From an uncultured bacterium (GTDB lineage Bacteria > Zhuqueibacterota > QNDG01 > CAYUAG01), in NCBI GenBank assembly GCA_964442615.1, contig CAYUAG010000009.1, positions 1 to 58,794 of the forward strand: a stretch of 58,794 nucleotides of DNA. The letters run 5' to 3'. The translations under genes and the position numbers were made by a program. Under the pieces are notes generated by a model, which was given only the letters and a program-made list of their open reading frames with translations, had not been told where the DNA came from and did not search any database. Within the stretch, counting starts at the first letter, position 1. Each line of letters begins with the position of its first letter. Shown here in pieces: positions 7,363 to 53,479 of the stretch.

Positions 7363-7363
7363 C

Positions 7364-21550: not shown

Positions 21551-21641
21551 AGTATTTTTTTACCATTTATCAGTTTTTAAAAAGTAATACTATATATTAA
21601 ATAATATTAAGGATTTAGAAAACATTAAAAAATTATTGAAA

Positions 21642-21657
21642 TGGCATGTCATTTGCT
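21642..21657 (+). promoter_or_regulatory. Sigma54 promoter pointing into the sensor-phosphatase array
   Basis: TGGCATGTCATTTGCT (GG-N10-GC). Confidence 0.82.
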
Positions 21658-21753
21658 TGTAGTAATAAATTGAGATGATGTTTTAAGAACAACCAAAAGT
21701 ATTCTGTAGTTGTAATTGATATTAATTAGAAGGTTCTTGAAAAAACCAAAATC

Positions 21754-22251
21754 ATGAATCCAGTTTTGATTTTAGAACATTCTCATGAGCAAGTTAGTAC
21801 TACCCTGAAGCAACAGAAAAAAGCAGTGGAAAACCAGAATAACATGGATGTGTGTCTCTGTGTTTTAGAGAAAAACGGTGGTCAGCAACTGTTATTTGCC
21901 GGAGCTAAGCGTTCCCTGTATATCATAAAACGAGGAGAGAATACACTAACTGAGATAAAAGGAGACCGAAAGTCCATTGGAGGAAGGCAGCGGGAGGAGG
22001 AGCGGGTATTTACCGGACATGAGCTTAAGGTTCGGAAAGGAGACAGGTTATACTTAACCACAGACGGATTTGCTGATCAGCAGAATTCAAAGAACAGACG
22101 ATATGGATCAAGACGGCTGAAAACTTTTCTACAGTCAGTTTCTGAGCTGGAGATGCAGGAGCAGGAGAAAGTATTAGCTCAGGAATTAGCCAGACATCAG
22201 GGTAAGGAGGAACAGCGGGATGATATTACGGTGGTAGGGGTGAAGATATGA
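21754..22251 (+). pseudogene. Array unit A0: C-terminal fragment of a SpoIIE/PP2C phosphatase
   Basis: Starts mid-domain at the internal Met of the paralogs' KIMNP. Lacks VSGDFY and DCTGHG, and DGMD has become NNMD. The 3' half is nearly identical to the paralogs (TTDG, RDDITV). Confidence 0.85.
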
Positions 22252-22269
22252 ATAACAGAATGAACAAGA

Positions 22270-25200
22270 GTGAAATATACAGGGAATCTGTTTGGAAGAG
22301 AACAAAGCTGTTCAATTTTTTTTTATTGTACGATTTTAATGATGAAAAGGAGTAATGTGATGATGTTATGTTCAAGATTATTTTTACAATTAAAACTAAA
22401 ACTACAATTAGTATGTGTTGTATTTGTAATTAGTTTACCTGTTGTACTGTTTTCAGAAAATAATATCCATTTTGAAAATATTTCTGTTGAACAGGGGCTT
22501 TCTCAAATTTCAGTCAATTGTTTGCTTCAGGACAGGAATGGATTTATGTGGTTTGGAACCCTAGATGGACTCAATAAATATAATGGCTATAACTTCAAAA
22601 TTTATCAATATGAGATAAAGGACCCCAGTACATTATCTCATAACTCTATACTTTCAATCTTTGAAGATCGATCCGGTTTGATATGGATTGGTACGGATGG
22701 GGGCGGTCTTAATAGATATGATCCTAAAACAAATCAGTTTAAACATTATAAATATGATCCCCAAAATGCTCATAGCATCAGTGATAACAGGGTGACTGCC
22801 ATATTTGAAGACAAATCGAATATACTCTGGATTGGAACAATAAATGGCCTCAATAAATTTGATCCCAAAGAACAGCAGTTCTTTCGTTATTTCCATGATC
22901 CAGAAAATACCAACAGCCTGGGGAATAATTATATTCAATGTTTATGTGAAGTCCAAACAGGTGACATCTGGATTGGAACAGGTGGCGGTGGGATATCTGT
23001 CCTGAGTCGGAATAACCAAGGTAAAGATCAGTTTACCCATATCAAACGGGATCCAAAAAATCTCAGCAGTTTGATCAATAATACTGTTAACTCAATTCTT
23101 CAAGACAACACGGGGATGATATGGATCGCAACTAATGGAGGACTGGATAAATATGATCCGGGAAAAAAACAATTTACCCATTTCCAAAATGATCCAGACA
23201 ATCCCAAAAGCCTGATTAATAATACTGTTAACTCAATTCTTCAAGATAGCACAGGGATGATATGGATCGGAACTAATGGAGGACTGGATAAATATGATCC
23301 AGGAAAAGAACAATTTGTCCACTATATGGATGAATCTTTTTCTATCACAACATTTTGCAAGGATAGAACAGGTGTTCTTTGGATAGGGACCATTGGCAGT
23401 GGGATCTATAAATTTTATAGAGAAAAAGAAAATTTTCTCCATTACAATCGAGATCTTTCTGATACCAATAGCTTGATCAGCAATGTGGTATGGTCTTTTT
23501 GTGAGGATAGCCGGGGAATACTATGGATTGGAACTGTGAGTGGACTGGATCAATTCGATCGTTCTAAAAACCAATTCATTCACTATACAAATGACCCTCA
23601 AAATCCAAACAGTTTGAGTAACAATGATGTCAGATCAATCCATGAAGATCAAAGTGGAGCCCTTTGGATCGGAACCAGCGGAGGGGGGCTGAATAAACTG
23701 AACAGAGACCGAAACCAATTTAAAAGATTTCTGAATAATCCCCGTAATCCCACCAGTTTGAGTCATAATTTTGTCTCAATAATCTTTGAGGATAGAAAAA
23801 AAATGTTATGGATTGGAACCTACGGTGGTGGTTTGAATAAATTTGATCGACACAAAGGAGAGTGTACCCGTTATGTGAAAGATCCAAATGATATCAATAG
23901 TCTGGCACACAATTATGTTAATGTCATTTATGAAGACCGTACCGGGAAACTCTGGATCGGCACCCGCGGTGGGCTGGATAAATTTGATCAACAGAACAAC
24001 TGTTTTATTCACTACAAAAATGACCCGGATAATCCCAATAGCCTGAGTTATAATTTGATTTTTTCTATCCTTGAGGACCAATCAGGTATGTTGTGGATCG
24101 GGACATATGGAGGTGGATTAAATAGATTAAATCCCAGAACAGAAACATTTACTCATTTCACAGAAAAGGATGGGCTTCCAAATGATGCTATTTATGGGCT
24201 TCTTATGGACAAAGCTGGAAATATTTGGATAAGTACAAATAATGGGTTGTCACAATTTAATCCAGAAACACAAATATTTAAAAATTTTAATATAAGCGAC
24301 GGACTGCAAAGCAAGGAATTTGATAGAGGAGCATATTATAAAAGCATAAGAACGGGAGAAATGTTTTTTGGTGGCGTTAATGGTTTTAATGCATTTTTTC
24401 CTGATAAAATTAAAGATAATCCATTTATTCCTCAGATTGTCATAACGGATTTTAAGTTATTCAATACATCTGTTTTGATTGGAGAAAAGATTGATGATCG
24501 AATCATCTTGACGAAAAGCATAACAGAAACAGACAAGATTGAAATCTCTTACAAACAAAATGTTTTATCCTTTGAGTTTGCCGCGTTACATTATATCTCC
24601 CCGGAAAAAAATCAATATGCATATATGATGGAAGAACTGGATAAGGATTGGAATTATGTGAACAACCGGCGATTTGCCTCCTATACAGGTATTCCTCCAG
24701 GTAAATACACTTTCAGAGTTAAAGCCTCCAATAATGATGGGGTGTGGAATGAAAAGGGAGCATCCATTAAAATAACCATTACTCCTCCTTTTTGGCAGAC
24801 CTGGTGGTTTCGAACTTTGATAGCAATTTTTATTATAGGAATTGCTTTCAGCTGGTATAAGATGAAAGTTAGAAACCTGGAAAGACAGAAACAGAAACTT
24901 GAAAAGCAGGTTAAGGAGAGGACTACCGAAATTCGACATAAGAATAAACAACTTGAGAAAAAGAATGAGCAGATCTTAAGCAGCATCCGCTACGGAGAGC
25001 GTATTCAGAATGCTATTTTACCCCTGACTGAAAAGATACGATCTTCTATACCTCAACACTTCATTCTTTATAAACCAAGAGATATTGTCTCCGGTGATTT
25101 TTACTGGTTTAATCAAATTGATGGGAAGATAGTATTAGCTGTGGTAGACTGTACTGGTCATGGAGTACCAGGAGCCTTCATGTCAATGATGGGTAATGCT

Positions 25201-25734
25201 TTTTTGAATGAAATAGTTACTGAACAAAAGATCATGAATCCCTCTTTGATTTTAAAACGTCTTCATGAAGAGGTCCGTACTGCTTTAAAGCAGAAACAAG
25301 AGAAGGTTGACACCCAGGATGGTATGGATGTGTGTCTCTGTGTTTTAGAGAAAAACAGTCACACCCAAAAGCTTTTATTTGCGGGAGCCAAGCGTCCGCT
25401 CTTTGTTTTCAAAAAGGGAGAGTCTAAACTTACTGAAGTTAAAGGAGACCGCAAATCAATTGGGGGAAAGCAGCGGGAGGAGAAGCGGGAATTTACCGGA
25501 CATGAGCTTAAGGTTCGGAAAGGAGACAGGTTATACCTGACCACAGACGGATTTGCTGATCAGCAGAATTCAAAGAACAGACGGTATGGATCAAGACGGC
25601 TGAAAACTTTTCTACAGTCAGTTTTTGAGCTGGAAATGCAGGAGCAGGAGAAAGTATTAGCTCAGGAATTAACCAGACATCAGGGTAGAGAGGAGCAGCG
25701 GGATGATATTACGGTGATGGGGGTGAGGGTGTGA
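22270..25734 (+). CDS. Array unit A1: Reg_prop beta-propellers, Y_Y_Y, TM, SpoIIE/PP2C phosphatase
   Basis: Repeated D..G.LWIGT.GGL..FD blades, YTGIPPGKYTFRVKASNNDGVW, PPFWQTWWF plus TM, VSGDFY, DCTGHG, DGMD, TTDG, RDDITV. True start is probably downstream of the GTG. Confidence 0.92.
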   Translation: MKYTGNLFGREQSCSIFFYCTILMMKRSNVMMLCSRLFLQLKLKLQLVCVVFVISLPVVLFSENNIHFENISVEQGLSQISVNCLLQDRNGFMWFGTLDGLNKYNGYNFKIYQYEIKDPSTLSHNSILSIFEDRSGLIWIGTDGGGLNRYDPKTNQFKHYKYDPQNAHSISDNRVTAIFEDKSNILWIGTINGLNKFDPKEQQFFRYFHDPENTNSLGNNYIQCLCEVQTGDIWIGTGGGGISVLSRNNQGKDQFTHIKRDPKNLSSLINNTVNSILQDNTGMIWIATNGGLDKYDPGKKQFTHFQNDPDNPKSLINNTVNSILQDSTGMIWIGTNGGLDKYDPGKEQFVHYMDESFSITTFCKDRTGVLWIGTIGSGIYKFYREKENFLHYNRDLSDTNSLISNVVWSFCEDSRGILWIGTVSGLDQFDRSKNQFIHYTNDPQNPNSLSNNDVRSIHEDQSGALWIGTSGGGLNKLNRDRNQFKRFLNNPRNPTSLSHNFVSIIFEDRKKMLWIGTYGGGLNKFDRHKGECTRYVKDPNDINSLAHNYVNVIYEDRTGKLWIGTRGGLDKFDQQNNCFIHYKNDPDNPNSLSYNLIFSILEDQSGMLWIGTYGGGLNRLNPRTETFTHFTEKDGLPNDAIYGLLMDKAGNIWISTNNGLSQFNPETQIFKNFNISDGLQSKEFDRGAYYKSIRTGEMFFGGVNGFNAFFPDKIKDNPFIPQIVITDFKLFNTSVLIGEKIDDRIILTKSITETDKIEISYKQNVLSFEFAALHYISPEKNQYAYMMEELDKDWNYVNNRRFASYTGIPPGKYTFRVKASNNDGVWNEKGASIKITITPPFWQTWWFRTLIAIFIIGIAFSWYKMKVRNLERQKQKLEKQVKERTTEIRHKNKQLEKKNEQILSSIRYGERIQNAILPLTEKIRSSIPQHFILYKPRDIVSGDFYWFNQIDGKIVLAVVDCTGHGVPGAFMSMMGNAFLNEIVTEQKIMNPSLILKRLHEEVRTALKQKQEKVDTQDGMDVCLCVLEKNSHTQKLLFAGAKRPLFVFKKGESKLTEVKGDRKSIGGKQREEKREFTGHELKVRKGDRLYLTTDGFADQQNSKNRRYGSRRLKTFLQSVFELEMQEQEKVLAQELTRHQGREEQRDDITVMGVRV

Positions 25735-28700
25735 TGATTGACAATGAAGTTAACATAATAATTCTTAGTATAGAGAATATATTTTTATAATAATTAAAGG
25801 AATTTGTTATGAAAAATCGTAAACAATGGTATTGGGTACAATTTTTTATATTTTTAGTTTTTAGTTGTGTTTACGCTTCAGACAAAGATATTCATTTTCA
25901 ACATATTACTATCAATGATGGTCTATCTCAAAATTCTGCCAATTGTTTACTCAGGGACAAGAAAGGATTCATGTGGTTTGGAACCCAGGATGGATTGAAT
26001 CGATTTGATGGGTATGAATTTACTGTCTATAGAAACGATCCCATGGACTCAACCTCAATATCTGATAATTATATTCTGTCTATGATTGAAGATTATACCG
26101 GAGCTATCTGGGTTGGAACCCAGAATGGATTAAATAGATTTTCTGTTGAGAAAGAGATATTCAAACGATATTGCTTTTGTACTGATAGTCCTTATTGCTT
26201 GTGTGACAAACAAATAAAAACTATTCATGAATCATTTGTTGAGCCCGGGATTCTCTGGATCGGTACTGAGAATGGGTTAAGTCAATTGAATGTTGAAAAC
26301 GAGCAAGTGACAAATTATTTTCACGATACTCAATAATTCAATAGTCTGATTCACAATAATGTGGAGGTGATTTATCAAACACGTTCACATCCAGAAGTCA
26401 TCTGGATTGGTACTGAGGGGGGATTGGATAAGTTTAATATAGAAAAGCAACAATTCATTCATTATCAATATGATCCGGATAATTCCAACAGTTTATGTCA
26501 TAATCATGTGATGGCCCTTTATAAAACTCCATCAGAACCGGGAGTGCTTTGGATCGGAACCAGGCATGGATTGGATCGATTTGATATGGAGAAAGAACAG
26601 TTTACTCATTACCGTCATAATCTCAATAATCCCAATAGTCTTATTCATGATTACATCAGGGCTATTTATGAATCCCCGGAAGAACCAGGAATACTCTGGA
26701 TAGGTACCTTTGGAGGAGGTTTGGATAAATTCAATAAAGCAAATAAAAAATTCACCCACTACGTTTATAAAATTGAAAATTCCAGCAGCATCAGTGATAA
26801 TTTTATTTTAAATTTTTGGGAGGATGAATCGAAAATTTTATGGATTGGAACTGAGGGAGGAGGAATTAATCAATACAATCGAGTTTCCAAACAGTTTCTA
26901 TTATATCAGCATGATCCTAATAATCCCAACAGTTTAAGCATTAATCACGTTCGCTCCATTTATGAATCTCCATTAGATTCAACTATTTTGTGGATAGGAA
27001 CCTACGATGGATTGAATAAATGGGATCGAGAGAGAGGGATTTTTACCTGCTATAATCATGATCCGAAAAATCCAAATAGTTTGAGCAGTAATTTGATACG
27101 GGTTGTTTATGAAGACAGAAGCGGTTTAGTATGGATTGGGACTTATAATGGTGGTCTCAATCAATTTGATCCTAAAACAGGAGTGTTTAATCACTATCGT
27201 CATGATCCGGATGATTCCTATAGTATAAGTAATGATTATGTCAGGACTTTGTATCAAGACAGATCAGGAGCGATATGGATAGGAGCGGTTGGAGGTGGAC
27301 TGGATCGTTTTGATAATAAAAATGGCCGTTTTTATCACTATACTTATAATCCAGATGATTCCACTGGTATAAACAGTGATCGTGTATATGCTATCTGTGA
27401 AGATAAAGAGGGTATTCTCTGGTTGGGAACATCTAAGGGATTGAATCGATTTGATCGAGAGTCAGAAACATTTACCTATTATACCCATGATCCAAATGAT
27501 CTTACAAGTATAGGGAATAATCTTGTTATGAGTGTTTATAAAGATAGAAGAGGACAGTTGTGGATAGGAACATGGGGAGGAGGAATAAACAGGTTTGATC
27601 ATCAGACTGAAAAATTTTATCGTTATACAAAAAAAGATGGTCTGGCTAATGATGTGGTGTATGGTATTCTTGAAGATAAGCAAGGAAATCTCTGGCTCAG
27701 CACCAATTATGGATTGTCAAAATTTAATCCAGAGAAAAAAACTTTTAAAAATTATGATGTGACTGATGGCCTTCAGAGCAATGAATTCAATGCTGGTGCT
27801 TATTATCAGAATATAAGAGGAAAAATGTTTTTTGGAGGAATCAATGGATTGAATGCATTTTATCCCGATAAAATCAGAGACAATCCCTATATTCCTCCTA
27901 TTGTGATTAATGATTTTCAGATATCGAATCAAACAGTTCCAATTAAGAGTCAAGATGAGGAAGATGTGATTTTATCAAAATCCATTATCTATACTAATGC
28001 AATTACTCTCTCTTATAAAGAGGATGTTATATCTTTTGAATATTCAGCACTGAATTATGTGTCTTCTGAAAAGAATCAGTACGCCTATATAATGGAGGGT
28101 TTGGATAAAGAGTGGAATTACGTAGGAGAGAGGCGTTTTGTAACCTATACTACTCTTCCTCCAGGTGAATATACGTTTCGAGTAAAAGGCTCCAATTGCG
28201 ATAGGATATGGAATGAGGAGGGAACATTTTTAAAGATCATCATTACTCCTCCTTTCTGGCAGACGTGGTGGTTTAAAATAGTAGCCGGGTTGTTACTCAT
28301 GGCCGTAGTTTATTTTATATTCTATCTTAAGACAAAGAGTTTTAAAAAAAGAGAGAAAAAACTTCAAAAAACTGTTCAGGAACGAACCAAGAAGTTAGAG
28401 CAAGCAAACAAAAATTCTAAAATCCTGAAAGATGAGGCTCAAAAGAAAGCTGTTCAATCTGATTTATTATATAGAATAGGGCAGAGAGTGAGTAGCGAAT
28501 TGGAAACAAAATCTCTTTTTAATGAAATAGTCAAGTCCATACGAAAAACTTATAATTATTTCCATGTAGCGATTTTATATTTAGATGAAAACACAGAAAA
28601 GATCAAATTAAAAGCCATATCCAGCGCTGAACCCGAAAAACATCTTAAAGAATTAACCCTGTCTTTAGGACAAGGAATGATAGGGCAGGCAGTTTTAACT

Positions 28701-28956
28701 GGTAAAATCAAGATAACTGGCAATGTTCGAAAAAATCCTCACTATGTTAGAATCAAAGAAGAAACCATACAATCTGAACTTGATATTCCGTTAAAAAGCG
28801 GTAATAAGGTTATGGGTGTTCTTAGTATACAAAGTGATAAATTAAACGCATTTGATAAAACAGATATTACAGTAATGGAGATTCTCAGTACTCAAATTGT
28901 TTCGGCTATAGAAAACGCCCGGCTTTATGAACAGACAAAACGACGAGCAGTTCAAT

Positions 28957-29344
28957 CTGCGATAATTTATAAGACTGGTCAGCGGGTTGGCAGTCAGTTA
29001 GAAATTGATGCTCTGCTGCCTGAAATTGTGACCTCTGTTTGTGATGAATTTGACTATTACAGCGTAGCTCTTTTAATGATAAATGAGAAGTCAGATCATT
29101 TAATTTTGAAGGCTATAGCTGGGGAAAATGCTAAGTTTGCTCCAGTTAGTTCAAAGATTAGAATGGGAGAGGGAATAACAGGATATGTTGCCCAGTGTGG
29201 TGAGACACAGGTCTCAGGAGATATTAGAAAGAATTCTCATTATGTTTCTTTTGGAAAAGAAAAAACCAAATCTGAGCTGACAGTACCATTAAGGAGTGGG
29301 AAGAGAATTATTGGTGTTCTTGATATTCAAAGTGATACATTAAA
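28957..29344 (+). repeat. 388-bp GAF-coding direct repeat; second copy at 44746-45133
   Basis: I found no differences by eye from ctgcgataatttataagactgg to gtgatacattaaa. Offset 15789. Confidence 0.85.
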
Positions 29345-30867
29345 TGCCTTTGATAAAACTGATGTTACAGCCATGGAGATTCTAAGCACTCAAATTGTAT
29401 CAGCAATAGAGAATGCTCGACTTTATGAACAGACAAAACGGCGGGCAGCTCAAACTGCTTTGATTTATGAGGTAGGTAAACGTTTGAGCAGTAACTTAAA
29501 TTTTAAAGAGTTATTAACCACTATTGTGACCACTATTTGTGAAGCCTTTGATTACTATGGTGTTATGATGCTTATGTATGATGAGAAGTATGAATATCTT
29601 ACTCTTCAGTCCATCACTGGAGGGTATGTAGGTACATTTCCTCTTGATCTTCGCATTGCTAAAGGAAAAGGAATGATCGGGCAGGCAGCAAAAACGGGAA
29701 AAATCCAGGTAAGTGGGGATGTTAGTCAAGACCCTCATTTTGTTCGGAAGGAGAAAGAAAAAACAAAATCCGAACTTTCGGTACCGATTAAGCTTGGTGA
29801 TAAAGTGATCGGAGTACTTGATATACAGAGTGATAAACTCCATGCATTTGATAACACGGATGTGACTGCTATGGAAACTCTCAGTACCCAGATCGCTTCA
29901 GCTATTGAGAATGCCAGGCTTTATGAACAAGCTCAATATGAAATTTCAATACGAAACAAGACGGAGAAAGAGTTAGAGAAACGCAAGAGTTATTTGGAGT
30001 CGGTATTGCAAAATGCTCCGGATGCAATTGTAACCATGGACAAATCCCACAACATTGTTGACTGGAATGAAGGTGCTGAGAAAATATTTGGATACAAGGA
30101 AAAAGAGGTATTGGGAAAAAATATTGACAACCTTATAACCTCTCCTGATGTTAAAGTTGAGTCACAAGGAATGACCAAGCAAGTCCTTTCAGGTAATAAG
30201 GTTCCTTCCAGGGAGTCAATTCGTTATAGGAAAGATGGAACTTCTGTGAATGTTATTGTAGCTGGTTCTCCAATAATAATTGAAAATAAATTTCATGGCA
30301 TTGTAGCAGTATATACTGATATCACTAAGCGGAAAAAAGCAGAAAAAGAGCTAAGTCAGAAGAATAAAGAGCTTGAAACCATGGACAGTGTAGTAAAGAT
30401 TATTAACAAGAAGATTGATCTAGAAAATGTTCTTCAGTCGCTTTTAAGACAAACACTAAATTTTTTCCCCCAGGCGGAGAAAGGTTCCTTTTTAATTTAT
30501 GATGAGGATATGGAGAAGTATCGGTATGCGGTAGTAAATGGATATAATGTAAAAGATGTTAAAAATATTCATCTTACTGAAAAAGAAGTAATGGACAGTT
30601 ACACCGAGCATTCAGAACAGTTGGATGCAGGAGTTTATGTTATACGGAATATTAAAGGTTTATCAACTCAGAATAAGTTACATCGTGTTGAAACTCCCAA
30701 GTCAATGTTAGCCATGTCAGTGATTTTGGAAGGCAGGTTAGAAGGATTTTTGATATTGGACAATATGAAAGATCAGGATGCATTTAATAAGACAGATGTT
30801 CAGAAATTGCTTCGTTTTCGGGAGCATGCAGTATCAGCATTTATCAGGGCAAAGAGCCTGCGGTTGC

Positions 30868-31627
30868 TGGAGGAGAAGAATAAGAATATCTTAAGCAGTA
30901 TTCGATACGGAGAGCGTATTCAGAATGCCATTTTACCCCTGACCAAAAAGATACGATCTTCCCTGCCTCAACACTTTATTATCTTCAAACCCCGAGACAT
31001 AGTCTCTGGTGATTTTTACTGGTTCAATCAGGTGGATGGGAAGATTGTCCTGGCAGTAATAGACTGTACCGGTCACGGTGTCCCCGGGGCCTTTATGTCC
31101 ATGTTAGGTAATGCATTCCTGAATCAAATAGTTACTGAACAAAAGATCATGAATCCCTCTTTGATTTTAAAACGTCTTCATGAAGAGGTCCGTACTGCTT
31201 TAAAGCAGAAACAAGAGAAGGTTGACACCCAGGATGGTATGGATGTGTGTCTCTGTGTTTTAGAGAAAAACAGTCACACCCAAAAGCTTTTATTTGCGGG
31301 AGCCAAGCGTCCGCTCTTTGTTTTCAAAAAGGGAGAGTCTAAACTTACTGAAGTTAAAGGAGACCGCAAATCAATTGGGGGAAAGCAGCGGGAGGAGAAG
31401 CAGGTATTTACCAGTCATGAGATTAAGGTTCAGAAAGGAGATCAGTTATACCTGACCACAGATGGTTTTGCGGATCAGCAGAATCCGAAAAACAAACGAT
31501 ATGGCTCAAGACGGCTGAAGGCTTTTCTCCAGTCAGTTTCTGAGTTGGAAATGCAGGAGCAGGAGAAAGTATTAGCTCAGGAATTAGCCAGACATCAGGG
31601 TAGAGAGGAGCAGCGGGATGATATTAC
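30868..31627 (+). repeat. 760-bp PP2C-coding direct repeat; second copy at 45781-46540
   Basis: I found no differences by eye from tggaggagaagaataag to gatgatattac. Offset 14913, and the translations are identical. Confidence 0.88.
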
Positions 31628-31645
31628 CGTGGTGGTGGTGAAGAT

Positions 31646-35059: not shown

Positions 35060-35119
35060 TGAAGATTGAATATAAAGGTGGTTTCTATTTAGTTATTAAA
35101 AAATAAAGTATACGGTGTA

Positions 35120-38539: not shown

Positions 38540-38610
38540 TGATTGATATGAAGTTATAATAATAATTTTCAGCATGGAGAATATGTTTTAAAAAATGAAG
38601 GACAGATATT

Positions 38611-42006: not shown

Positions 42007-42077
42007 TGATTGATATGAAGTTAAAATAATAATTTTCAGCATGGAGAATATGTTTTAGAAAATGAAAGGGGGATATT

Positions 42078-45000: not shown

Positions 45001-46562
45001 TCTCAGGAGATATTAGAAAGAATTCTCATTATGTTTCTTTTGGAAAAGAAAAAACCAAATCTGAGCTGACAGTACCATTAAGGAGTGGGAAGAGAATTAT
45101 TGGTGTTCTTGATATTCAAAGTGATACATTAAAAGCCTTTGATAAAATCGATGTTACAGCAATGGAGACCCTTAGTATCCAGATCACTTCAGCCCTAGAA
45201 AATGCACGACTCTATGAAAAAGCTCAACATGAGATTTCAGTACGAAAAAAAGCAGAGAAAGAGCTTAGCCAGAAGAATAATGAGCTTGAGACATTGGACA
45301 GTGTAGTAAGGGTTATCAACAAAGAGATAGACCTGGAAAATGTTCTCCAATCACTTTTAGGACAAGCACTTAGCCTCCTGCCTCAGGCTGAGAGAGGTTC
45401 ATTTTTGATTTATGATGAGGATTTGGAGAGGTATCGATATGCTGTAGTAGATGGGTATAATATAGAAAATGTGCAGAACATTCATCTTACTAAAGAAGAG
45501 GTGATAAGTCGTTATACGGAACATTCGGAACAATTGGAAGAGGGATCGTATGTTATACAGAGTATGGAAGGATTAAGTGCTCAGCATAAGTTGCAGCATC
45601 TTGAGACACCCAAGTCAATATTGGCCATGTCAGTGATCTTGGAAGGCAGGTTAGAAGGATTTTTGATATTGGATAACATGTCAGATCAGTATACCTTTGA
45701 TAAAACTGATGTTCAGAAATTGCTTCGTTTTCGGGAACACGCAGTATCAGCATTTATCAAGGCAAAGAGCCTACGGTTGTTGGAGGAGAAGAATAAGAAT
45801 ATCTTAAGCAGTATTCGATACGGAGAGCGTATTCAGAATGCCATTTTACCCCTGACCAAAAAGATACGATCTTCCCTGCCTCAACACTTTATTATCTTCA
45901 AACCCCGAGACATAGTCTCTGGTGATTTTTACTGGTTCAATCAGGTGGATGGGAAGATTGTCCTGGCAGTAATAGACTGTACCGGTCACGGTGTCCCCGG
46001 GGCCTTTATGTCCATGTTAGGTAATGCATTCCTGAATCAAATAGTTACTGAACAAAAGATCATGAATCCCTCTTTGATTTTAAAACGTCTTCATGAAGAG
46101 GTCCGTACTGCTTTAAAGCAGAAACAAGAGAAGGTTGACACCCAGGATGGTATGGATGTGTGTCTCTGTGTTTTAGAGAAAAACAGTCACACCCAAAAGC
46201 TTTTATTTGCGGGAGCCAAGCGTCCGCTCTTTGTTTTCAAAAAGGGAGAGTCTAAACTTACTGAAGTTAAAGGAGACCGCAAATCAATTGGGGGAAAGCA
46301 GCGGGAGGAGAAGCAGGTATTTACCAGTCATGAGATTAAGGTTCAGAAAGGAGATCAGTTATACCTGACCACAGATGGTTTTGCGGATCAGCAGAATCCG
46401 AAAAACAAACGATATGGCTCAAGACGGCTGAAGGCTTTTCTCCAGTCAGTTTCTGAGTTGGAAATGCAGGAGCAGGAGAAAGTATTAGCTCAGGAATTAG
46501 CCAGACATCAGGGTAGAGAGGAGCAGCGGGATGATATTACGGTGGTAGGAGTGAAGGTTTAA
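42078..46562 (+). CDS. Array unit A6: propellers, Y_Y_Y, TM, GAF, GAF, PP2C
   Basis: Signal peptide like A2 and A5. First GAF matches GAF2 of A2, second is homologous to the last GAF of A2, and the PP2C matches A2. Confidence 0.93.
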   Translation: MKSCKQRYWVQFLIFLVFSWIYASDNNIHFQHITINDGLSQNTVNCILQDSKGFMWFGTNDGLNRYDGYNYKVYKFDAEDVNSLSNNYIHSIIMDRSGIIWIGTYGGGLNRFDREKEQFVRYQVDPDNLNSLSNNFIYSVFEDHLGALWIGTLDGLNKLIPSEEEGTPPTFIHYRNDLKNPKSLSCDIVVSVYEDQSGDLWIGTWGSGLNRFDRHTEEFIHYQHNPNDPFSLSHNRIWSINEDRTGSLWIATDGGGLNRFDKQTEKFHRYQNDPDDPNSLNCDVVVTIYKNRSGCFWIGTDGGGLNYFDLKTEQFIHYENNLTDPNSLSHNVVRSIWEDKFGILWIGTLGGLDKFDPDKVQFAHYQKEPGNSNSLSHNEIRAIYEDKENVLWIGTDGGGLNCLDRKTGQFIHYRHDPSNSCSLSDDVVLSIYKDRSDVLWLGTYMGGLNRFDQKTKRFIHYQNDPDNPNSISDNFVRCIYEDRSGVLWIGISTNGGLNRFNQKTQKFIRYLHDPNKPHSLSHNGVSTLYEDRLDRFWVGTFGGGLNRFDRKKKQFIHFKNDPNDSNSLSDNRVYSIHEDSSGVLWIGTGGGLNRFDPEKRTFQHYKVKDGLPNDVIYGILEDDHGNLWLSTNNGLSKFNPITETFKNYNIDDGLQSNGFYLGAYYKTRKEEMVFGGINGFNIFYPDSIKDNLHAPPVVITDFQIFNKSVPIGEKEDRSAILKKSITETKEIELSYKNKVISFEFAALHYASPDKNEYAYMMQGFEKDWNYVGNRRFASYTNLPPGDFIFWVKASNNDGIWNEEGISLRITIAPPFWKTWWFLTLGIVLLIGFTFSIYRVRVQSIQKRNRELEAKVNKQTYELKNTNKTLRKEVAVRKRMEKDARRRAAQAAIIYKTGQRVGSQLEIDALLPEIVTSVCDEFDYYSVALLMINEKSDHLILKAIAGENAKFAPVSSKIRMGEGITGYVAQCGETQVSGDIRKNSHYVSFGKEKTKSELTVPLRSGKRIIGVLDIQSDTLKAFDKIDVTAMETLSIQITSALENARLYEKAQHEISVRKKAEKELSQKNNELETLDSVVRVINKEIDLENVLQSLLGQALSLLPQAERGSFLIYDEDLERYRYAVVDGYNIENVQNIHLTKEEVISRYTEHSEQLEEGSYVIQSMEGLSAQHKLQHLETPKSILAMSVILEGRLEGFLILDNMSDQYTFDKTDVQKLLRFREHAVSAFIKAKSLRLLEEKNKNILSSIRYGERIQNAILPLTKKIRSSLPQHFIIFKPRDIVSGDFYWFNQVDGKIVLAVIDCTGHGVPGAFMSMLGNAFLNQIVTEQKIMNPSLILKRLHEEVRTALKQKQEKVDTQDGMDVCLCVLEKNSHTQKLLFAGAKRPLFVFKKGESKLTEVKGDRKSIGGKQREEKQVFTSHEIKVQKGDQLYLTTDGFADQQNPKNKRYGSRRLKAFLQSVSELEMQEQEKVLAQELARHQGREEQRDDITVVGVKV

Positions 46563-46628
46563 CTAAGTGAACTATCTAACCTAAATTTAAGCTTCAGATT
46601 ATTTAAGTAGAACTGATTTCAACAATTA

Positions 46629-49600
46629 GTGAAATCTGCGCTATCAGTGGCTAAAAGGAATAAGGAAAAACAAATGACAAGTTTTAATTATATCAAAACT
46701 GCATTATTAACACCAATGAAACATTGCTTATATTCAGTGACTGTCAATTATTTATTTTATATTTTTAAAATGGTTGTTTTACTGATTATTGTTTTGTGGA
46801 GTTCTTTTGATGGTTGGGCACTTGATCCCCAAAAAGCGATAACACAATATATTATGAATAACTGGCAGTTGAAAGAAGGGCTTCCACATAACTCTATCCT
46901 TGCAATAGTCCAAACTCGTGATGGTTATATTTGGTTAGGAACAGGAAATGGTCTTGTGCGTTTTGATGGAGTTCGTTTTATTGTCTTTAATAAAAGGAAC
47001 ACAGAACAAATAAAAATGAATGTTATCGAGACGCTTTATGAAGATAGAATAGGAAACCTTTGGATTGGTACCAGCAGTGGACTGGTCTGTCTGCGAGATG
47101 GTAAATTTACTATTTATACAATAGAGGAAGGCTTGTCCCACGACTATGTGAAATCAATCTATGAAGATAGGGTGGGTAATCTCTGGATCGGAACCAAGGG
47201 TGGCGGATTGAACCGGCTTAAAGATGGAAAATTTACTGCTTATACTACAGAAGAGGGCTTATCAAACAATAATGTCAAGTCAATTTATTTGGATCGAGAA
47301 GGGACTCTCTGTATCGGTACTGAGGGTGGGGGATTGATGTTGTTGAGAGATGAAAAGTTCACCATCTTTACTACAAAAGATGGTCTGTCAAACAATTATA
47401 TATCTTCTCTTTATGAAGATCAAAAGGGGAATCTATGGATTGGTACCTTGAATGGACTTAATAAATTCAGAGATAGTGAATTTACAGCTTTCACTACGAA
47501 AGAGGGTATGTGTAACAATGAAGTGAACGTGATCTATGAGGACAGGGAAGGTAATCTCTGGATTGGTACTGATGGCGGGCTTAATCGATTCAAAGATGGT
47601 GAATTTGCTTCTTTGACGATGAAAGAGGATTTGTCTCACAACATTGTGTGTTCAATCTATGAGGACAGGGAAGGGAATCTATGGGTAGGTACCTTGGATG
47701 GCGGGCTAGTCTGTCTTCGAGATGGTAAATTAAGTACTTATAGCACCAAAGAAGGTCTTTCGCATAATTTTATCTATTCAGTTTATGAAGATCGAGTAGG
47801 GAATATATGGATTGGTACTAGTAATGGTGGTCTGAACTGTTTAAAAGATGGTAAATTCACAACTTATACTTCCAGAGATGGTATTTCAACAAACAGCAAC
47901 ATTTTGACTATCCTGGAAGACCGAGAAAGAGCTCTCTGGATTGGTACTGATTGTGGCCTAAATCGAATGAAAGAAGGAAAATTCACCATCTACACAATCA
48001 AAGAAGGTCTTTCTGATGACATGGTCAGATGTGTTTATGAAGATCAAGCTGGCAATCTATGGATCGGTACTCACAATGGCGGTCTAAATCGGCTGGAGAA
48101 TGGAAAGTTTATCAATTACACAACCAATGATGGATTAATGAGCAATACAATCACATATCTTCATGAAGATAAAGAAGGAGCACTCTGGATAGGTACTCTT
48201 GGTGGATTGAACTGCATTAAGGAGGGAAAAATTACCTCCTATACTACTAAAGAGGGGCTGACAAACAACAACATTAATACTATCTATGGAGATCATGAGG
48301 GAACACTCTGGATAGGTACACGATGTGGCGGTTTGAATTGTCTCAAAGATGGAAAATTTACCTCTTACAGTATTAAAGACGGCCTCTTTAGCGATGTTAT
48401 TATTCATATCCTTGAAGATAATAATAATAATCTTTGGATTAGTTACAATAATGGAATTTTTCAGGTTAGTAAGAAAGATCTCAATGATTTTACAGATGGG
48501 AAAATCAATGCCATCCATTCCACCTCATACGGCTTAGTCGATGGAATGAGGAGCAGTTCATGTACTGGGGGTGTACAGTCTGCAGGATTGAAGAGTCATG
48601 ATGGAAAACTTTGGTTTCCAACCTTAAACGGAGTTGTTATGATTGATCCAGATAATATTAAAATTAACAAACTGCCGCCGCCTGTGATTATTGAGGAAGT
48701 ATCAGTTGATAATATGATAATTAACCCTGAATTAATAAAAAAAATTGATCGGATTGTTTTTTCTCCAGGAAAAGAAAGGTTTGAATTTTACTATACTGCA
48801 TTGAGTTTCACAGTTCCCGAAATGGTAAAATTCAAATACAAATTGGAAGGGTTTGATATAAATTGGATAGATACGGATAATAGAAGAATGGCTTATTACA
48901 TGAACATTCCACCAGGGGACTATATATTTAAAGTTATTGCATGTAATAACGATGGTGTTTGGAACACGACAGGTGCTAGCTTTTCCTTTTATCTAAAACC
49001 TTTTTTTTATCAGACAAAGTGGTTTTATGGTTTGTGTGTTGTGTTAGTTTTTTTTATGGGATTTATAGGGTACCGTCTGCGAGTTCGACAGTTAAAAGTA
49101 CAGAAGAAAAAGCTCGAAAGGAAAGTAGAAGAAAGGACGAAAGAAATAAGAGAACAGAAATATATTATCGAAGAAAAGAATGAACAACTCCAAAAGAAGA
49201 ACGAACAAATACTTAGCAGCATCCGATACGGGGAGTGTATACAAAATGCTATTTTACCCCTGACCGAAAAGATACGATTTTCTATACCTCAACACTTCAT
49301 TCTTTATAAACCAAGAGATATTGTCTCCGGTGATTTTTACTGGTTTAATCAGGTAAATGGAAAGATAGTTTTGGCAGTGGTGGACTGTACCGGTCACGGT
49401 GTGCCGGGAGCCTTTATGTCCATGTTAGGTAATGCTTTCCTAAATCAAATAATTACTGAACAACAAATAATGGATCCTTCTTTGATTTTAACACGTCTTC
49501 ATGAGGAAGTTCGGACTGCCTTAAAGCAGGAACAAGGGGAAGCCGACACTCAGGACGGTATGGATGTGTGCCTCTGTGTTTTAGAGAAAAACAGGCACAA

Positions 49601-49970
49601 ACAAAAGGTTTTCTTTGCCGGAGCCAAATGTCCGCTCTATATCATAAAAAAAGGAGAGACTGAGATTACGGAGATAAAAGGAGACCGCAAGTCAATTGGG
49701 GGAAAGCAGCGGGAGGAGAAGCAGTTATTTACTAATCATGAGATTAAGGTTCAGAAAGGAGACAGGTTATACTTAACCACAGATGGATTTGCGGATCAGC
49801 AGAATTCAAACAATAGACGATATGGCTCAAGACGGTTGAAAATTTTTCTTCAGTCAGTTTCTGAGCTGAGTATGCAGGAACAGAGGGAAGCACTGGTACA
49901 AGAGTTGGCCAGTCATCAGGGAATAGAGGAACAGCGAGATGATATTACAGTAGTGGGAGTGAAGGTTTAA
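46629..49970 (+). CDS. Array unit A7: short-blade propeller subtype, Y_Y_Y, TM, PP2C (start probably ATG 46674 or later)
   Basis: ALDPQKAITQY start of the mature domain, about 42-aa blades of type YEDREGNLWIGT.GGL..LKDGKFT.YT..EGLS, PFFYQTKWF, PP2C motifs. Confidence 0.92.
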   Translation: MKSALSVAKRNKEKQMTSFNYIKTALLTPMKHCLYSVTVNYLFYIFKMVVLLIIVLWSSFDGWALDPQKAITQYIMNNWQLKEGLPHNSILAIVQTRDGYIWLGTGNGLVRFDGVRFIVFNKRNTEQIKMNVIETLYEDRIGNLWIGTSSGLVCLRDGKFTIYTIEEGLSHDYVKSIYEDRVGNLWIGTKGGGLNRLKDGKFTAYTTEEGLSNNNVKSIYLDREGTLCIGTEGGGLMLLRDEKFTIFTTKDGLSNNYISSLYEDQKGNLWIGTLNGLNKFRDSEFTAFTTKEGMCNNEVNVIYEDREGNLWIGTDGGLNRFKDGEFASLTMKEDLSHNIVCSIYEDREGNLWVGTLDGGLVCLRDGKLSTYSTKEGLSHNFIYSVYEDRVGNIWIGTSNGGLNCLKDGKFTTYTSRDGISTNSNILTILEDRERALWIGTDCGLNRMKEGKFTIYTIKEGLSDDMVRCVYEDQAGNLWIGTHNGGLNRLENGKFINYTTNDGLMSNTITYLHEDKEGALWIGTLGGLNCIKEGKITSYTTKEGLTNNNINTIYGDHEGTLWIGTRCGGLNCLKDGKFTSYSIKDGLFSDVIIHILEDNNNNLWISYNNGIFQVSKKDLNDFTDGKINAIHSTSYGLVDGMRSSSCTGGVQSAGLKSHDGKLWFPTLNGVVMIDPDNIKINKLPPPVIIEEVSVDNMIINPELIKKIDRIVFSPGKERFEFYYTALSFTVPEMVKFKYKLEGFDINWIDTDNRRMAYYMNIPPGDYIFKVIACNNDGVWNTTGASFSFYLKPFFYQTKWFYGLCVVLVFFMGFIGYRLRVRQLKVQKKKLERKVEERTKEIREQKYIIEEKNEQLQKKNEQILSSIRYGECIQNAILPLTEKIRFSIPQHFILYKPRDIVSGDFYWFNQVNGKIVLAVVDCTGHGVPGAFMSMLGNAFLNQIITEQQIMDPSLILTRLHEEVRTALKQEQGEADTQDGMDVCLCVLEKNRHKQKVFFAGAKCPLYIIKKGETEITEIKGDRKSIGGKQREEKQLFTNHEIKVQKGDRLYLTTDGFADQQNSNNRRYGSRRLKIFLQSVSELSMQEQREALVQELASHQGIEEQRDDITVVGVKV

Positions 49971-50020
49971 AAATAAAGAGCAGACTTAATCAATTTGTTA
50001 GTTTCACAAAATATGTACAG

Positions 50021-53000
50021 GTGATTTTTAACAGAAGAAATACTATGCACATAAAGCTATTTGGGAATGAAAAAATTAATTGGAATGTGATTTTTTATTT
50101 ATGGATACTCGAATTTATTTTTATTGAGCCTGTTTATGTACAGTCAGGAAGGGATATCCGTTTAGAACAGATTTCCCTTGAACAGGGCTTGTCCCAAGTT
50201 ACAGTCAATTGCATACTTCAAGATAGACAGGGTTTCATGTGGTTTGGGACCCAGGATGGATTAAACAAGTATGACGGTTATCAATTTACAGTGTACCGCC
50301 ATGAACCAAATGATAGTACAAGTTTAAGTTATAATCTTATTTTATCGATATTTGAAGATCAGGACGGGTATCTGTGGATTGGTACTGAGGGAGGAGGATT
50401 AAATAGATTCAATCCTAATACTGAATCCTTTATTCATTATAAGAATCAAATTGGAGACTCACTCAGTCTTAGTAATAATTCTGTTTATTCCATTTTAGAG
50501 GATACCAGAGGTAACTTGTGGGTAGGAACTTATAATGGATTAAATAAGTTTGATCGAAACTTAAAAAAAATTATTCGTTATCAGAACCAGCCTAATAATC
50601 CCCATAGTTTGAGTCATAACAGAATTTCATTTATATTGGAAGATCACAATGGTAATCTGTGGATTGGAACGGAACATGGATTAAATAAATTTGAACAAAA
50701 TTCGGAATCTTTTATTTCTTACCTGAATAATCCTGATAATTCTCTAAGCCTTAGCAATAATAATATCAAGTCTATATTAGAGGATTATAGAGGTAACTTG
50801 TGGATTGGCACTTTTGGTGGTGGATTAAATAAATTCAATATAAAAACTGAAACCTTCACCAGTTACCAAAATCAAGTTGATAATCCCAACAGCCTTAGTA
50901 ATAATTTTATCATGTCAATTTTTGAAGATTCCAGAAACAACTTGTGGATTGGGACTTCTGGTGGTGGGATAAACAAGTTAAATCCAGAATCGGAGATTTT
51001 CATAAACTATCAGCACAAGCCTAATGATCCTAAAAGTCTTGGTAATAACATAGTAATGCCAATTTTTGAAGATAGAGGAGAAAATCTGTGGATAGGAACT
51101 ATTGGAGGCGGATTGAATAGGTTTGATCCTAAGACTGAATCCTTTACTTGTTATAAACACCAAGTAAATAATCCTTATAGTCTCAATAATAATTTTGTGT
51201 TGTCGATTTTTAAAGATTCGAATGATGACCTGTGGATCGGAACAGCTGATGGTTTAAATAAATTTAATCCACTAACAAAGATCTTTACATTATATCAGCA
51301 CTACAAGGATGATCCACATAGTCTTAGCCTTAACAATGTTATGTCTATTATTGAAGATACAGATGGCAGCTTGTGGATTGGGACTTATGGTGGTGGATTA
51401 AATAAATTCGATCGTAAAACTGAAACTTTCATCTGCTATAAGAACCAGGATGGCAATCCTGAAAGTCTAAGTAATAACTTTGTGTTAAGACTTTTGAAAG
51501 ATTCGGAAGGAATTTTATGGATTGGGACAAAAAATGGTTTAAATAGATTTGATGAAAAAACAGAAACTTTTACTCATTTTTGGCACCAAACTGATAATCT
51601 CCATAGTCTTAGCCATAATAATGTATATTCTATTTTTGAAGATTGCAGTGGAATCCTTTGGTTTGGGACACAAGATGGATTAAATAAATTTGATAGGAAG
51701 TCAGAAACCTTCACTCAATATAAAAATCAGGTTAATAATCCCCATACAATAAGTCATAATTTAGTCAGGTCGATTTATAAGGATGCCGAAGGTAACCTGT
51801 GGATTGGGACAGATGGCGGATTAAATAAACTTGTCCCGAGTGATAACGAGGGATCTCCCCCAACCTTCACTTGTTACAGAGAAAAGGATGGTTTGTCAAA
51901 TGATGTTATATATGGAATTCTTGAGGATGATAATGGTTGTTTATGGTTAAGTACCAATAAAGGAATTAGTAAGTTTAATCCTGAAATTAATTCCTTCATT
52001 AATTATGATGTAAAAGATGGTCTGCAAAGTAATGAGTTTAATACAGGTTCATGTTATAAGGATGGAAATGGTCAAATGTATTTTGGTGGAGTAAACGGTT
52101 TCAATGTTTTTCACCCTGATAGCATAATGAATAATACATATGTGACACCTGTAGTTATTACAGATTTTTTGCTATTTAATAAACCAGTGAAAGTATCCCG
52201 AAATGGCAACAAATCCGACCGGTTTGAACTACAGAAACACATAAATTTCATAGGAGAAATAACTTTAGATTATACGGACTACATTTTTGCTTTTGAATTT
52301 TCAGCTTTGAATTACCGGCAATCGGAAAAAAATCAATTTGCCTATAAATTAGAAGGTTTTAACAAAGAGTGGATTAAAACAGATCATCTTCACCGCAGAG
52401 CGACTTATACGAATTTGCCTCATGGCGAATATGTATTCAGAGTAATAGCTTCAAATGATGATGGCTATTGGAACGAGGAAGGTACCAGTATTACGTTGAC
52501 CATCCTTCCTCCATTTTGGAAAACCTGGTGGTTTCGAAGTCTGATTATTGCGTTCATTGTAGGGAGTGCTTTTAGTTGGTATAAAATGCGGGTTAGAAAT
52601 CTGGAGAGACAGAAACAGAAACTTGAAAAGCAGGTTAAAAAAAGGACAATAGAAATACGTTATAAGAATAAACAACTTATGGAGAAGAATAATCAGATAC
52701 AAGAAAAGAACGAACAGATCTTAAGCAGCATCCGATATGGGGAGCGTATTCAAAATGCTATTTTACCCCTTGCCGAAAAGATACGATCTTCTATACCCGA
52801 ACATTTCATTTTTTTTAAACCAAGAGATATTGTTTCAGGTGATTTTTACTGGTTTAATCAACTAGATGGAAAAACTGTTCTGGTTGTGGTTGACTGTACT
52901 GGTCACGGTGTGCCTGGAGCCTTTATGTCCATGATTGGTAACATTGTGCTCAACGAGATTATTATCGAACAACAGATTACTAATCCTAAAAAGATTTTAG

Positions 53001-53479
53001 AGCGTCTTCATGAAGAAGTACGAACTGCCTTAAAACAGGAACAAGAAGAAGGTGTTACCCAGGACGGTATGGATGTGTGTCTCTGTGTTTTAGAGAAAAA
53101 TAGTCATAAACAAGAGCTTTTATTTGCCGGAGCCAAGCGTCCCTTATATATTATAAAAAAAGGTGAGATTGAACTTATTGAAATAAAAGGTGACCGTAAG
53201 TCAATAGGGGGGAGGCAGCGGGAGAAAAATCGGGTATTTACCAGTCATGAGATAGAGGTTCAGAAAGGAGATCAGTTATATCTGACTACAGATGGTTTTG
53301 CAGATCAGCAGGATTCAAAGAACGGGCGGTATGGATCAAGGCGTTTGAAAACTTTTCTCCAGTCAGTTGCTGAGCTGGAAATGAAGGAGCAGGGAGAAGT
53401 ATTAGCTCGGGAAATAGCCAAGCATCAGGGTAGAGAAGAACAGCGGGATGATATTACAGTGGTTGGGATAAAGGTGTGA
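50021..53479 (+). CDS. Array unit A8: propellers, Y_Y_Y, TM, PP2C
   Basis: Blade repeats with NPNSL-type loops, YTNLPHGEYVFRV, PPFWKTWWF, intact PP2C motifs. Confidence 0.93.
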   Translation: MIFNRRNTMHIKLFGNEKINWNVIFYLWILEFIFIEPVYVQSGRDIRLEQISLEQGLSQVTVNCILQDRQGFMWFGTQDGLNKYDGYQFTVYRHEPNDSTSLSYNLILSIFEDQDGYLWIGTEGGGLNRFNPNTESFIHYKNQIGDSLSLSNNSVYSILEDTRGNLWVGTYNGLNKFDRNLKKIIRYQNQPNNPHSLSHNRISFILEDHNGNLWIGTEHGLNKFEQNSESFISYLNNPDNSLSLSNNNIKSILEDYRGNLWIGTFGGGLNKFNIKTETFTSYQNQVDNPNSLSNNFIMSIFEDSRNNLWIGTSGGGINKLNPESEIFINYQHKPNDPKSLGNNIVMPIFEDRGENLWIGTIGGGLNRFDPKTESFTCYKHQVNNPYSLNNNFVLSIFKDSNDDLWIGTADGLNKFNPLTKIFTLYQHYKDDPHSLSLNNVMSIIEDTDGSLWIGTYGGGLNKFDRKTETFICYKNQDGNPESLSNNFVLRLLKDSEGILWIGTKNGLNRFDEKTETFTHFWHQTDNLHSLSHNNVYSIFEDCSGILWFGTQDGLNKFDRKSETFTQYKNQVNNPHTISHNLVRSIYKDAEGNLWIGTDGGLNKLVPSDNEGSPPTFTCYREKDGLSNDVIYGILEDDNGCLWLSTNKGISKFNPEINSFINYDVKDGLQSNEFNTGSCYKDGNGQMYFGGVNGFNVFHPDSIMNNTYVTPVVITDFLLFNKPVKVSRNGNKSDRFELQKHINFIGEITLDYTDYIFAFEFSALNYRQSEKNQFAYKLEGFNKEWIKTDHLHRRATYTNLPHGEYVFRVIASNDDGYWNEEGTSITLTILPPFWKTWWFRSLIIAFIVGSAFSWYKMRVRNLERQKQKLEKQVKKRTIEIRYKNKQLMEKNNQIQEKNEQILSSIRYGERIQNAILPLAEKIRSSIPEHFIFFKPRDIVSGDFYWFNQLDGKTVLVVVDCTGHGVPGAFMSMIGNIVLNEIIIEQQITNPKKILERLHEEVRTALKQEQEEGVTQDGMDVCLCVLEKNSHKQELLFAGAKRPLYIIKKGEIELIEIKGDRKSIGGRQREKNRVFTSHEIEVQKGDQLYLTTDGFADQQDSKNGRYGSRRLKTFLQSVAELEMKEQGEVLAREIAKHQGREEQRDDITVVGIKV

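Follow-up and report, generated by a model that had tools for sequence, protein, structure and literature searches.

Mosaic PP2C modules point to concerted evolution of the output domain in a tandem array of sensor phosphatase genes from an uncultured Zhuqueibacterota bacterium

How do neighbouring genes with widely diverged sensors come to share a very similar output domain? This question is raised by a tandem array of sensor phosphatase genes in the 58,794-nt window analysed here, which is the entire contig C9 (CAYUAG010000009.1) of a metagenome bin of an uncultured bacterium of the Zhuqueibacterota (GCA_964442615.1; 3.58 Mb in 146 contigs, 85.7% complete, 34.8% GC). The array extends from 21730 to 56746, entirely on the + strand, and comprises ten PP2C-coding segments, namely a fragment, A0, and nine large genes, A1 to A9. 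The PP2C parts exhibit 79-91% protein identity, compared with 32-62% for the sensors. The original prediction, which placed the feature at 24960-53479, regarded the PP2C segments as patchwork mosaics consistent with gene conversion or unequal crossover. This is very probably the correct explanation: the PP2C modules of A0-A8 are mosaics produced by gene conversion or unequal exchange and evolve in concert. The mosaic array is real, although it is wider than predicted and A9 lies outside the homogenised set. The members of the array are as follows.

21730-22251, + strand: A0, 5'-truncated PP2C relic forming the upstream edge of the array (165-aa open reading frame (ORF) at 21754-22251; SpoIIE profile positions 40-190 of 192)
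22270-25734, + strand: A1, Reg_prop propellers, Y_Y_Y and PP2C (module 24955-25731)
25809-31649, + strand: A2, propeller, Y_Y_Y, three GAF, PAS and PP2C (module 30870-31646)
31646-35059, + strand: A3, propeller, Y_Y_Y and PP2C (module 34280-35056; the most diverged of the homogenised set)
35120-38539, + strand: A4, propeller, Y_Y_Y and PP2C (module 37760-38536)
38611-42006, + strand: A5, propeller, Y_Y_Y and PP2C (module 41227-42003)
42078-46562, + strand: A6, propeller, Y_Y_Y, GAF and PP2C (module 45783-46559)
46629-49970, + strand: A7, propeller, Y_Y_Y and PP2C (module 49191-49967; sensor sister to that of A9, PP2C of the A1-A8 set)
50021-53479, + strand: A8, propeller, Y_Y_Y and PP2C (module 52700-53476)
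53489-56746, + strand: A9, propeller, Y_Y_Y and PP2C (PP2C 55958-56743; outside the homogenised set)

Seven of the nine large genes encode Reg_prop propellers and a Y_Y_Y domain together with a membrane segment and, at the C terminus, Pfam SpoIIE/PP2C; to this plan A2 adds three GAF domains and a PAS domain, and A6 one GAF domain. The constant PP2C module measures 777 nt in A1-A8. All nine full genes score above the curated Pfam cut-off for SpoIIE (74.8-91.6 bits, cut-off 25), which, together with the fragment A0, gives the ten segments originally counted. The motifs SGDFYWF, VDCTGHG, DGF.DQ and QRDDIT, which we take to be the metal-binding aspartate and catalytic motifs of PP2C, are kept throughout A1-A9 in the alignment. 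A Pfam domain scan revealed no HisKA, HATPase, REC or AraC-type HTH output in A1-A9. No further copies of the module are found elsewhere in the genome, where the next tblastn matches, on six other contigs, show 22-26% identity. A0 lacks the first third of the module, and its match extends to 21730.

The mosaic structure is most readily seen in the tracts that are shared between array members.

A2 30868-31627 and A6 45781-46540, + strand: A2/A6 identical tract (760 of 760 bases; mismatches directly outside both ends)
A1 25211-25486, A2 31126-31401 and A6 46039-46314, + strand: A1/A2/A6 identical tract (276 of 276 bases)
A2 28941-29390 and A6 44730-45168, + strand: second near-identical A2/A6 tract, in the GAF region (96-100% per 150-column window)
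25732-26030, 38537-38840 and 42004-42300, + strand: junction repeat at three junctions (from the stop codon through the spacer into the following gene's leader)

In the 777-nt alignment, the modules of A1-A8 are 76-90% identical at the DNA level, reaching 99.2% for A2 and A6, and the module of A9 is 64-67% identical to all others. Exact tracts of 760, 276, 88, 83, 72 and 61 nt are nevertheless present within pairs that are 11-25% diverged elsewhere. The two longest had been noted in the original prediction and hold base for base. Within the aligned module, A1 and A2 exhibit 49 differences in the 270 nt before the 276-nt tract and 30 after it, corresponding to flanks that are approximately 12-18% diverged, and the tract of A1 comprises 127 concordant polymorphic sites in a row (global P 0.0005, permutation test). 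The 39-nt string quoted in the original prediction is present at just three places in the window, 22009 (A0), 25492 (A1) and 41764 (A5), so A1 does switch partner after the 276-nt tract, as had been claimed. A0 and A1 show 0-2 mismatches per 30 nt over aligned nt 540-720 (180 nt). The peptide patch reported to be shared by A4 and A5 is likewise present in both, with 2 mismatches in 150 aligned nt, compared with 8-11 per 30 nt immediately before it; the longest exact tract of this pair measures 61 nt (38225-38285 = 41692-41752).

The likeness is not confined to the modules. The tract in the GAF region of A2 and A6 (blastn 94.9% over 488 nt) is flanked by parts that are 77-83% alike or unalignable and adjoins indels of several hundred nt. 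The junction repeat is found at A1 to A2, A4 to A5 and A5 to A6, i.e. at three of the nine junctions, where the first 60 nt of the spacers are 82-96% alike (96% for the spacers after A4 and A5) and the leader of the next gene is 83-93% alike, with a likeness that fades approximately 300 nt past the stop codon.

Formal tests for recombination agree with this picture. A GENECONV-like site permutation was performed on seven segments, leaving out A0, A6 and A9 (332 of 777 sites polymorphic, 2000 permutations). Fragments with a global P<0.05 were carried by 8 of the 21 pairs when all sites were used and by 6 of the 21 on third codon positions alone (192 of 259 polymorphic). The pairwise homoplasy index (PHI) was below all 1000 permutations (P=0.001) in each of four settings, with and without A9, and on all sites and third positions. 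For approximately unbiased (AU) tests, the module was split at aligned nt 258 and 546 into three segments, each of which rejects the maximum-likelihood (ML) trees of the other two (6 of 6 tests, p 2e-5 to 0.018); the whole-module tree is rejected by segment 1 (p 0.017). The permutation, PHI and AU tests thus reject a single unrecombined history of the modules, also at third positions. One tree fitting all PP2C segments, the outcome named in the original prediction as speaking against mosaicism, is contradicted by this mutual rejection.

We compared synonymous sites in the sensor and PP2C parts, counting codon identity at columns with the same degenerate amino acid in both genes. For the 15 pairs among A1, A3, A4, A5, A7 and A8, codon identity in PP2C is 0.57-0.75 versus 0.41-0.42 expected, whereas in the sensors it is 0.35-0.52 versus 0.40-0.44 expected from codon usage. 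The PP2C parts of the six pairs that include A9 show values of 0.42-0.45, as expected at random. Similarly, the proportion of synonymous differences (pS, NG86 method) is 0.70-0.79 in the sensors (0.54 for A2-A6) and 0.30-0.67 in the PP2C part of A0-A8 (0.02 for A2-A6). Synonymous sites are therefore saturated in the sensors and unsaturated in the PP2C part of A1-A8, and the homogenisation of synonymous sites, as originally proposed, is real and found in PP2C only. As the GC content at third codon positions (GC3) of the A9 module is like that of the others, A9 provides a control within the array against an effect of composition alone. In addition, A0 is kept alike although it cannot be a phosphatase, so selection on the protein is not enough. 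Since synonymous sites, spacers and A0 are all homogenised too, protein-level selection is insufficient to explain the likeness of the modules.

The GC3 values are themselves uneven: 0.41-0.47 in the modules of A1-A7, 0.35 in A8 and 0.43 in A9, compared with 0.23-0.32 in the sensors (0.37 in that of A9). This rise is smaller in two homologues from another family, G014a and G014b, and is absent or small in L018, L020 and L029, which are homologues that stand single in their loci. GC-biased gene conversion could account for the raised GC3 of the modules, the sample being small.

The histories of sensors and modules were then compared using related genomes, in which G000 denotes the present genome, G001, G002 and G003 its congeners, and G014 and G027 members of another family of the same order. 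In the sensor tree, A7 and A9 group with L018, a gene from another phylum-labelled bin (100/100), and A1-A6 group with G014b and a G027 gene on contig C66 (97/99). The nesting of G014 and G027 genes among the window sensors implies that the sensor paralogs are older than the split of the families. In the PP2C tree, in contrast, A1-A8 form one group (94/94) and G014a and G014b another (100/98). The conflict is mutual: PP2C data reject both sensor splits (p-AU 0.0023 and 0.0046), and sensor data reject the group A1-A8 (AU, p 1e-13). In PP2C, and against the sensor history, paralogs are closer within a genome than across genomes, which is how concerted evolution is recognised. The modules of A7 and A8 were thus made like those of A1-A6 after the families split, and the module of A9 escaped homogenisation.

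Four of the 41 related genomes, the present one included, yielded the module, and the same pattern recurs in two others, G014 and G002. Two neighbouring genes of G014 have a stretch of 784 nt in common at 97.7%, of which 697 nt form an exact core and 18 positions are mismatched; one (G014a) is of the GAF-PAS-PP2C type and the other (G014b) of the propeller-PP2C type, and identity over the 120 nt preceding the tract is 27.5%. Within the genus of the present genome, G002 has two comparable module halves that are 87% alike and 71-76% alike to any window copy, and they are sisters in the tree (100/100). The last G002 copy adjoins M23 and FlgN genes as A9 does; at the protein level, its module is 68-69% alike to A1, A3 and A5 and only 49% to A9. 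With regard to inputs, the module stands behind a Peripla_BP_4 sensor in a third G002 gene (L038, G002:C279) and behind a cytoplasmic GAF-PAS-PAS sensor in G014a (L039, 609-2795). As propeller, Peripla_BP_4 and GAF-PAS sensors all carry it, at least three kinds of input occur in the lineage.

The remaining congeners, G001 (93% complete) and G003 (96%), gave no module match at E 1e-40. In G003 (L047, G003:C159 118-6170, compared with window 2004-12310 and 56768-57667), the M23 gene adjoins a broken sigma-54 activator gene (window 10934-12310), and transporter genes (Na:alanine/SNF; window 2004-6818) come next after this fragment. This junction implies that approximately 44 kb are absent at that syntenic place, comprising two kinase/activator sets, FlgD, FliN and the entire array. 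Among public contigs, neither the genomes (10 loci, up to 53% identity) nor the metagenomes (9 loci, up to 49% identity) yielded an orthologous array from a close strain.

A possible function is suggested by homology. The only match of the A1 PP2C in the PDB is 6K4E (E 2.8e-41, residues 6-258), a code for which the only paper found is the SiaABC paper on Pseudomonas aeruginosa (PMC7647112); judged by this match, the array module is a SiaA-like PP2C. A single SiaC-family gene is present in the genome, on contig C45 (E 2e-40). It lies in a cluster (C45 10918-15419, L048) that encodes, in order, a DUF6272 protein, SiaC, a second DUF6272 protein and a GAF-HisKA-HATPase-REC-REC-Hpt hybrid kinase. 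The SiaC-like protein matches chain C of 6KKO (E 4e-22), and the downstream DUF6272 protein, the only one of the two that was queried, matches chain A (E 3e-19). A literature search did not find the term DUF6272. Full-length SiaC occurs in 4 of the 41 related genomes, the same four that carry the PP2C module, and G003 retains only a 66-aa remnant. G014 and G027 have two SiaC genes each, on one contig. The restriction of full-length SiaC to module-bearing genomes suggests that many sensors probably feed one switch, and on balance we lean towards the view that nine SiaA-like sensor phosphatases feed one SiaC-like switch. If all nine did act on one SiaC-like protein, a common output module would be tolerated or favoured. 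STAS/RsbW-like partners, which have their own PP2C genes nearby on contigs C60 and C10, were also considered as the target and were dropped once the module had been matched to SiaA.

The identity of A2 and A6 would be of little value if it resulted from repeat collapse by the assembler, as the original prediction itself pointed out. The sequence of C9 is present in four marine-sediment metagenome runs (X1-X4), used here as Logan contigs only, which derive from two samples of one study, possibly the source of the bin itself. Two 167-nt Logan contigs cover 30731-30897, one of which is identical to A2 whereas the other carries the 15 differences of A6, and they merge at 30868 into a contig whose depth approximates the sum of its in-branches (10.6 vs 3.8+5.1 in X1, 15.2 vs 4.4+13 in X2). 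A1 joins at the following break, 31126/31155, and the out-branches leave at 31598/31627. These branch points agree in the contigs of the second assembler from the four runs and two samples. As the branches merge exactly at 30868 and leave at 31627, assembler collapse is not supported as the origin of the identity. Two of the loose Logan contig ends were traced; they correspond to the ends of A4/A5 and A0 and do not represent extra copies.

Some irregularities of these contigs are also recorded. One 30-mer preceding 31065 in Logan contigs is not present in the genome. Over 29800-30900, depths are uneven in X2 and X4 (in X2, 4.4 for the A2 type and 13 for the A6 type; 16.5 for the contig upstream in A2; 5-6 for A3), which may be due to strains with different arrays or to coarse contig depth figures. 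The single frame of A2 is interrupted by an in-frame TAA at 26337-26339, leaving ORFs of 175 aa (25809-26336) and 1762 aa (26361-31649); A2 is either a pseudogene or affected by an error at low depth (approximately 4-6x in X1). In the relatives, all three G002 matches and both G027 matches touch a contig end inside the module, as is expected of a repeated homogenised segment in short-read assemblies.

These broken contigs, the 146 contigs of the bin, the variants at 30945 and 30983 in some runs and the unequal X2 branch depths (4.4 vs 13) could be taken to indicate that the mosaics arose from repeat collapse or a wrong path in short-read assembly. We consider this very unlikely, as collapse hides few differences and not the approximately 50 expected over 276 nt, the second assembler gave the same branch points and summed depths in four runs, any pairing of flanks leaves identical cores between diverged flanks, and the G014 pair keeps its 18 mismatches and is thus not collapsed. 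A real but different history would be that of young tandem duplicates whose sensors diversified fast while purifying selection held the PP2C part. The difference in protein identity between the two parts and the presence of all copies in one array would fit this history, and for histidine kinases PMC1630713 describes a lineage-specific expansion in which new sensor domains are acquired. It is scarcely credible here, however, since, even at conserved residues, the synonymous sites of the sensors agree only as often as expected at random, genes from two genomes of the other family nest among the window sensors and the group A1-A8 is rejected by the sensor data (97/99 and p 1e-13, see above), and the pair-specific exact tracts, third-position mosaics and alike spacers are unexplained by protein selection.

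The exchanges may also have been few and long, with a block of PP2C, spacer and leader being swapped behind old sensors and the fine patchwork being secondary. The repeat unit that spans stop, spacer and leader at three of the nine junctions, the stump A0, the A1-A8-type module of A7 behind an A9-type sensor, and the modules of relatives behind Peripla_BP_4, GAF-PAS and propeller sensors all lend themselves to this explanation. In contrast, single modules contain 60-280-nt tracts shared with different partners, and the three segments yield three trees; several short events are therefore needed, and we regard a predominance of long exchanges as possible but rather doubtful. Such module swapping differs from the explanation preferred here in degree and is compatible with it. 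Programmed cassette variation of the pilE/pilS type was considered and rejected: it is the constant part that is copied in the array and the variable sensors are saturated at synonymous sites, and the only fragment, A0, is a piece of the constant part and not a silent variable donor.

Several points weigh against the reading of the array as a set of modules homogenised by gene conversion and serving one switch. No conversion event was seen directly in the contigs of the four runs of one study. The AU segment borders were picked after the mismatch map had been seen, which inflates that test somewhat, and the whole-module tree is not rejected by segment 2 (p 0.10) or segment 3 (p 0.061). The support for the group A1-A8 (94/94) is below the maximum, and the short C-terminal tree places the G002 pair beside A3 (87/87), so part of the similarity may predate the split of G000 and G002. 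The genome is a metagenome bin, fragmented and incomplete as described above, and X1-X4 may have the same source; copy order and the pairing of flanks across the shared tracts come solely from the bin assembly. Positions 30945 and 30983, which lie in the 760-nt tract, vary in contigs of X1 and X4, so the identity of A2 and A6 in single genomes may be 758-760 of 760. Lastly, no PP2C gene adjoins the SiaC gene on C45, and the link to Sia comes from homology and from co-occurrence in two genera (g1 and g10), a weak count since these are not independent samples.

Nevertheless, pair-specific tracts, PHI, AU tests, synonymous sites, spacers and tree conflict all agree with the mosaic origin of the modules by gene conversion or unequal exchange. 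Under this explanation, old sensor paralogs would carry a 777-nt PP2C module that evolves in concert in A0-A8. Each array protein would comprise a periplasmic sensor, a membrane segment, a helical linker and a SiaA-like PP2C. RecA-type recombination between modules would copy tracts of approximately 60-760 nt from gene to gene, both between neighbours and across 15 kb, and some of the copied tracts would extend beyond the module, across the spacer and into the following leader. The patchwork would result from the overlap of events that differ in age. The A0 stump and the repeated junction unit probably stem from unequal exchange between modules. The nine phosphatases would act on the single SiaC-like phosphoprotein encoded on C45, so that inputs diversify and the output stays common. 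Homogenisation might even keep this many-input, one-output circuit coherent, with fitting changes being spread by conversion and A9 drifting to another role, an idea that we advance tentatively. Perhaps the module paralogs also pair with each other through the PPM dimer face.

The original prediction went further and proposed that the constant domain is a recombination substrate which expands, contracts and shuffles the array. The first part is supported. Expansion, contraction and shuffling are only indicated, by the A0 relic, the junction unit and the differing array content of congeners; expansion and contraction are plausible, and the broken A2 and the A2/A6 GAF tract with its indels may also be cited for such dynamics.

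Flagellar genes border the array: those for FlgD and FliN precede it, and those for an M23 peptidase and FlgN follow it. Also upstream are two PAS/GAF histidine kinase sets, each with a sigma-54 activator (7975-12310 and 13583-19171), together with a receiver-SHOCT protein. At 5433-7362, a 461-aa ORF for an SNF-family transporter is followed by a 153-aa ORF matching the same end of the SNF profile (positions 351-478), which looks like a partial duplicate or remnant. A promoter scan of 21000-40900 gave 78 promoter-like sites versus 81.3 expected; terminator-like sites in the same region numbered 8 versus 9.9 expected, and none is inside any spacer.

With regard to known systems, Reg_prop/Y_Y_Y periplasmic sensors are domains of the glycan-sensing hybrid two-component systems of Bacteroides. 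The array has the same sensors, whereas its output is PP2C and not HisKA-HATPase-REC-AraC. A literature search, with supplements outside its range, found no link of Reg_prop/Y_Y_Y with SpoIIE.

The SiaABCD partner switch of P. aeruginosa (PMC7647112) resembles the present system in the SiaA-like domain and in the presence of SiaB-like and SiaC-like genes. It differs in having one such phosphatase, compared with nine with propeller/Y_Y_Y inputs here. In the present genome, moreover, the array on C9 and the SiaB/SiaC genes on C45 are not encoded together, and a hybrid histidine kinase, rather than a diguanylate cyclase, is encoded downstream of SiaC. The array suggests a testable circuit, in which nine SiaA-like sensors would act on one SiaC-like switch, in a little-known marine-sediment lineage. 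The RsbU/RsbP phosphatases, presented as an "exchangeable toolkit" in PMC12143880, likewise combine diverse N-terminal sensors, a helical linker and a PPM domain; modularity is argued from structures there, whereas here the exchange of the output module is seen at the DNA level in one locus.

A further comparison concerns the expansion of histidine kinases. Alm et al. 2006 (PMC1630713) reconstructed phylogenies from the kinase domain only and interpreted closely related output domains as a sign of recent duplication; their text does not contain the term "gene conversion". Their families and the present array have in common a related output domain behind unlike N-terminal sensors within one genome, but here the sensors predate the output module, and the duplications are therefore not dated by how alike the modules are. 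Close output domains in a signalling family need not, then, mean recent duplication, which bears on the dating of kinase, phosphatase and cyclase expansions. If the coherence of such circuits were a general cause of homogenisation, output-domain trees would date expansions systematically too young, and the output module's concerted evolution would account for part of what is described as "lineage-specific expansion with domain shuffling".

The mechanism itself is an established one, as bacterial paralogs are well known to undergo gene conversion; among prokaryotic paralogs, concerted evolution is exemplified by rRNA operons and tuf. A literature search that left supplements aside found no link of gene conversion or concerted evolution with bacterial PP2C genes, its one match concerning plant seed proteins. 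Long-lasting interlocus gene conversion is reported for 26 cases among prokaryotic paralogs in PMC6053082, in whose main text the words phosphatase and kinase are absent. The array shares with those cases the greater likeness of paralogs within a genome than of relatives between genomes, the mosaic tracts and the homogenised synonymous sites. In contrast to them, homogenisation affects only one domain of multidomain genes here, in nine tandem genes whose remaining parts are anciently diverged. The array thus provides an unusually clean domain-limited case of concerted evolution, which comprises nine genes, a fragment and spacers, includes an internal control, A9, and recurs in two other genomes.

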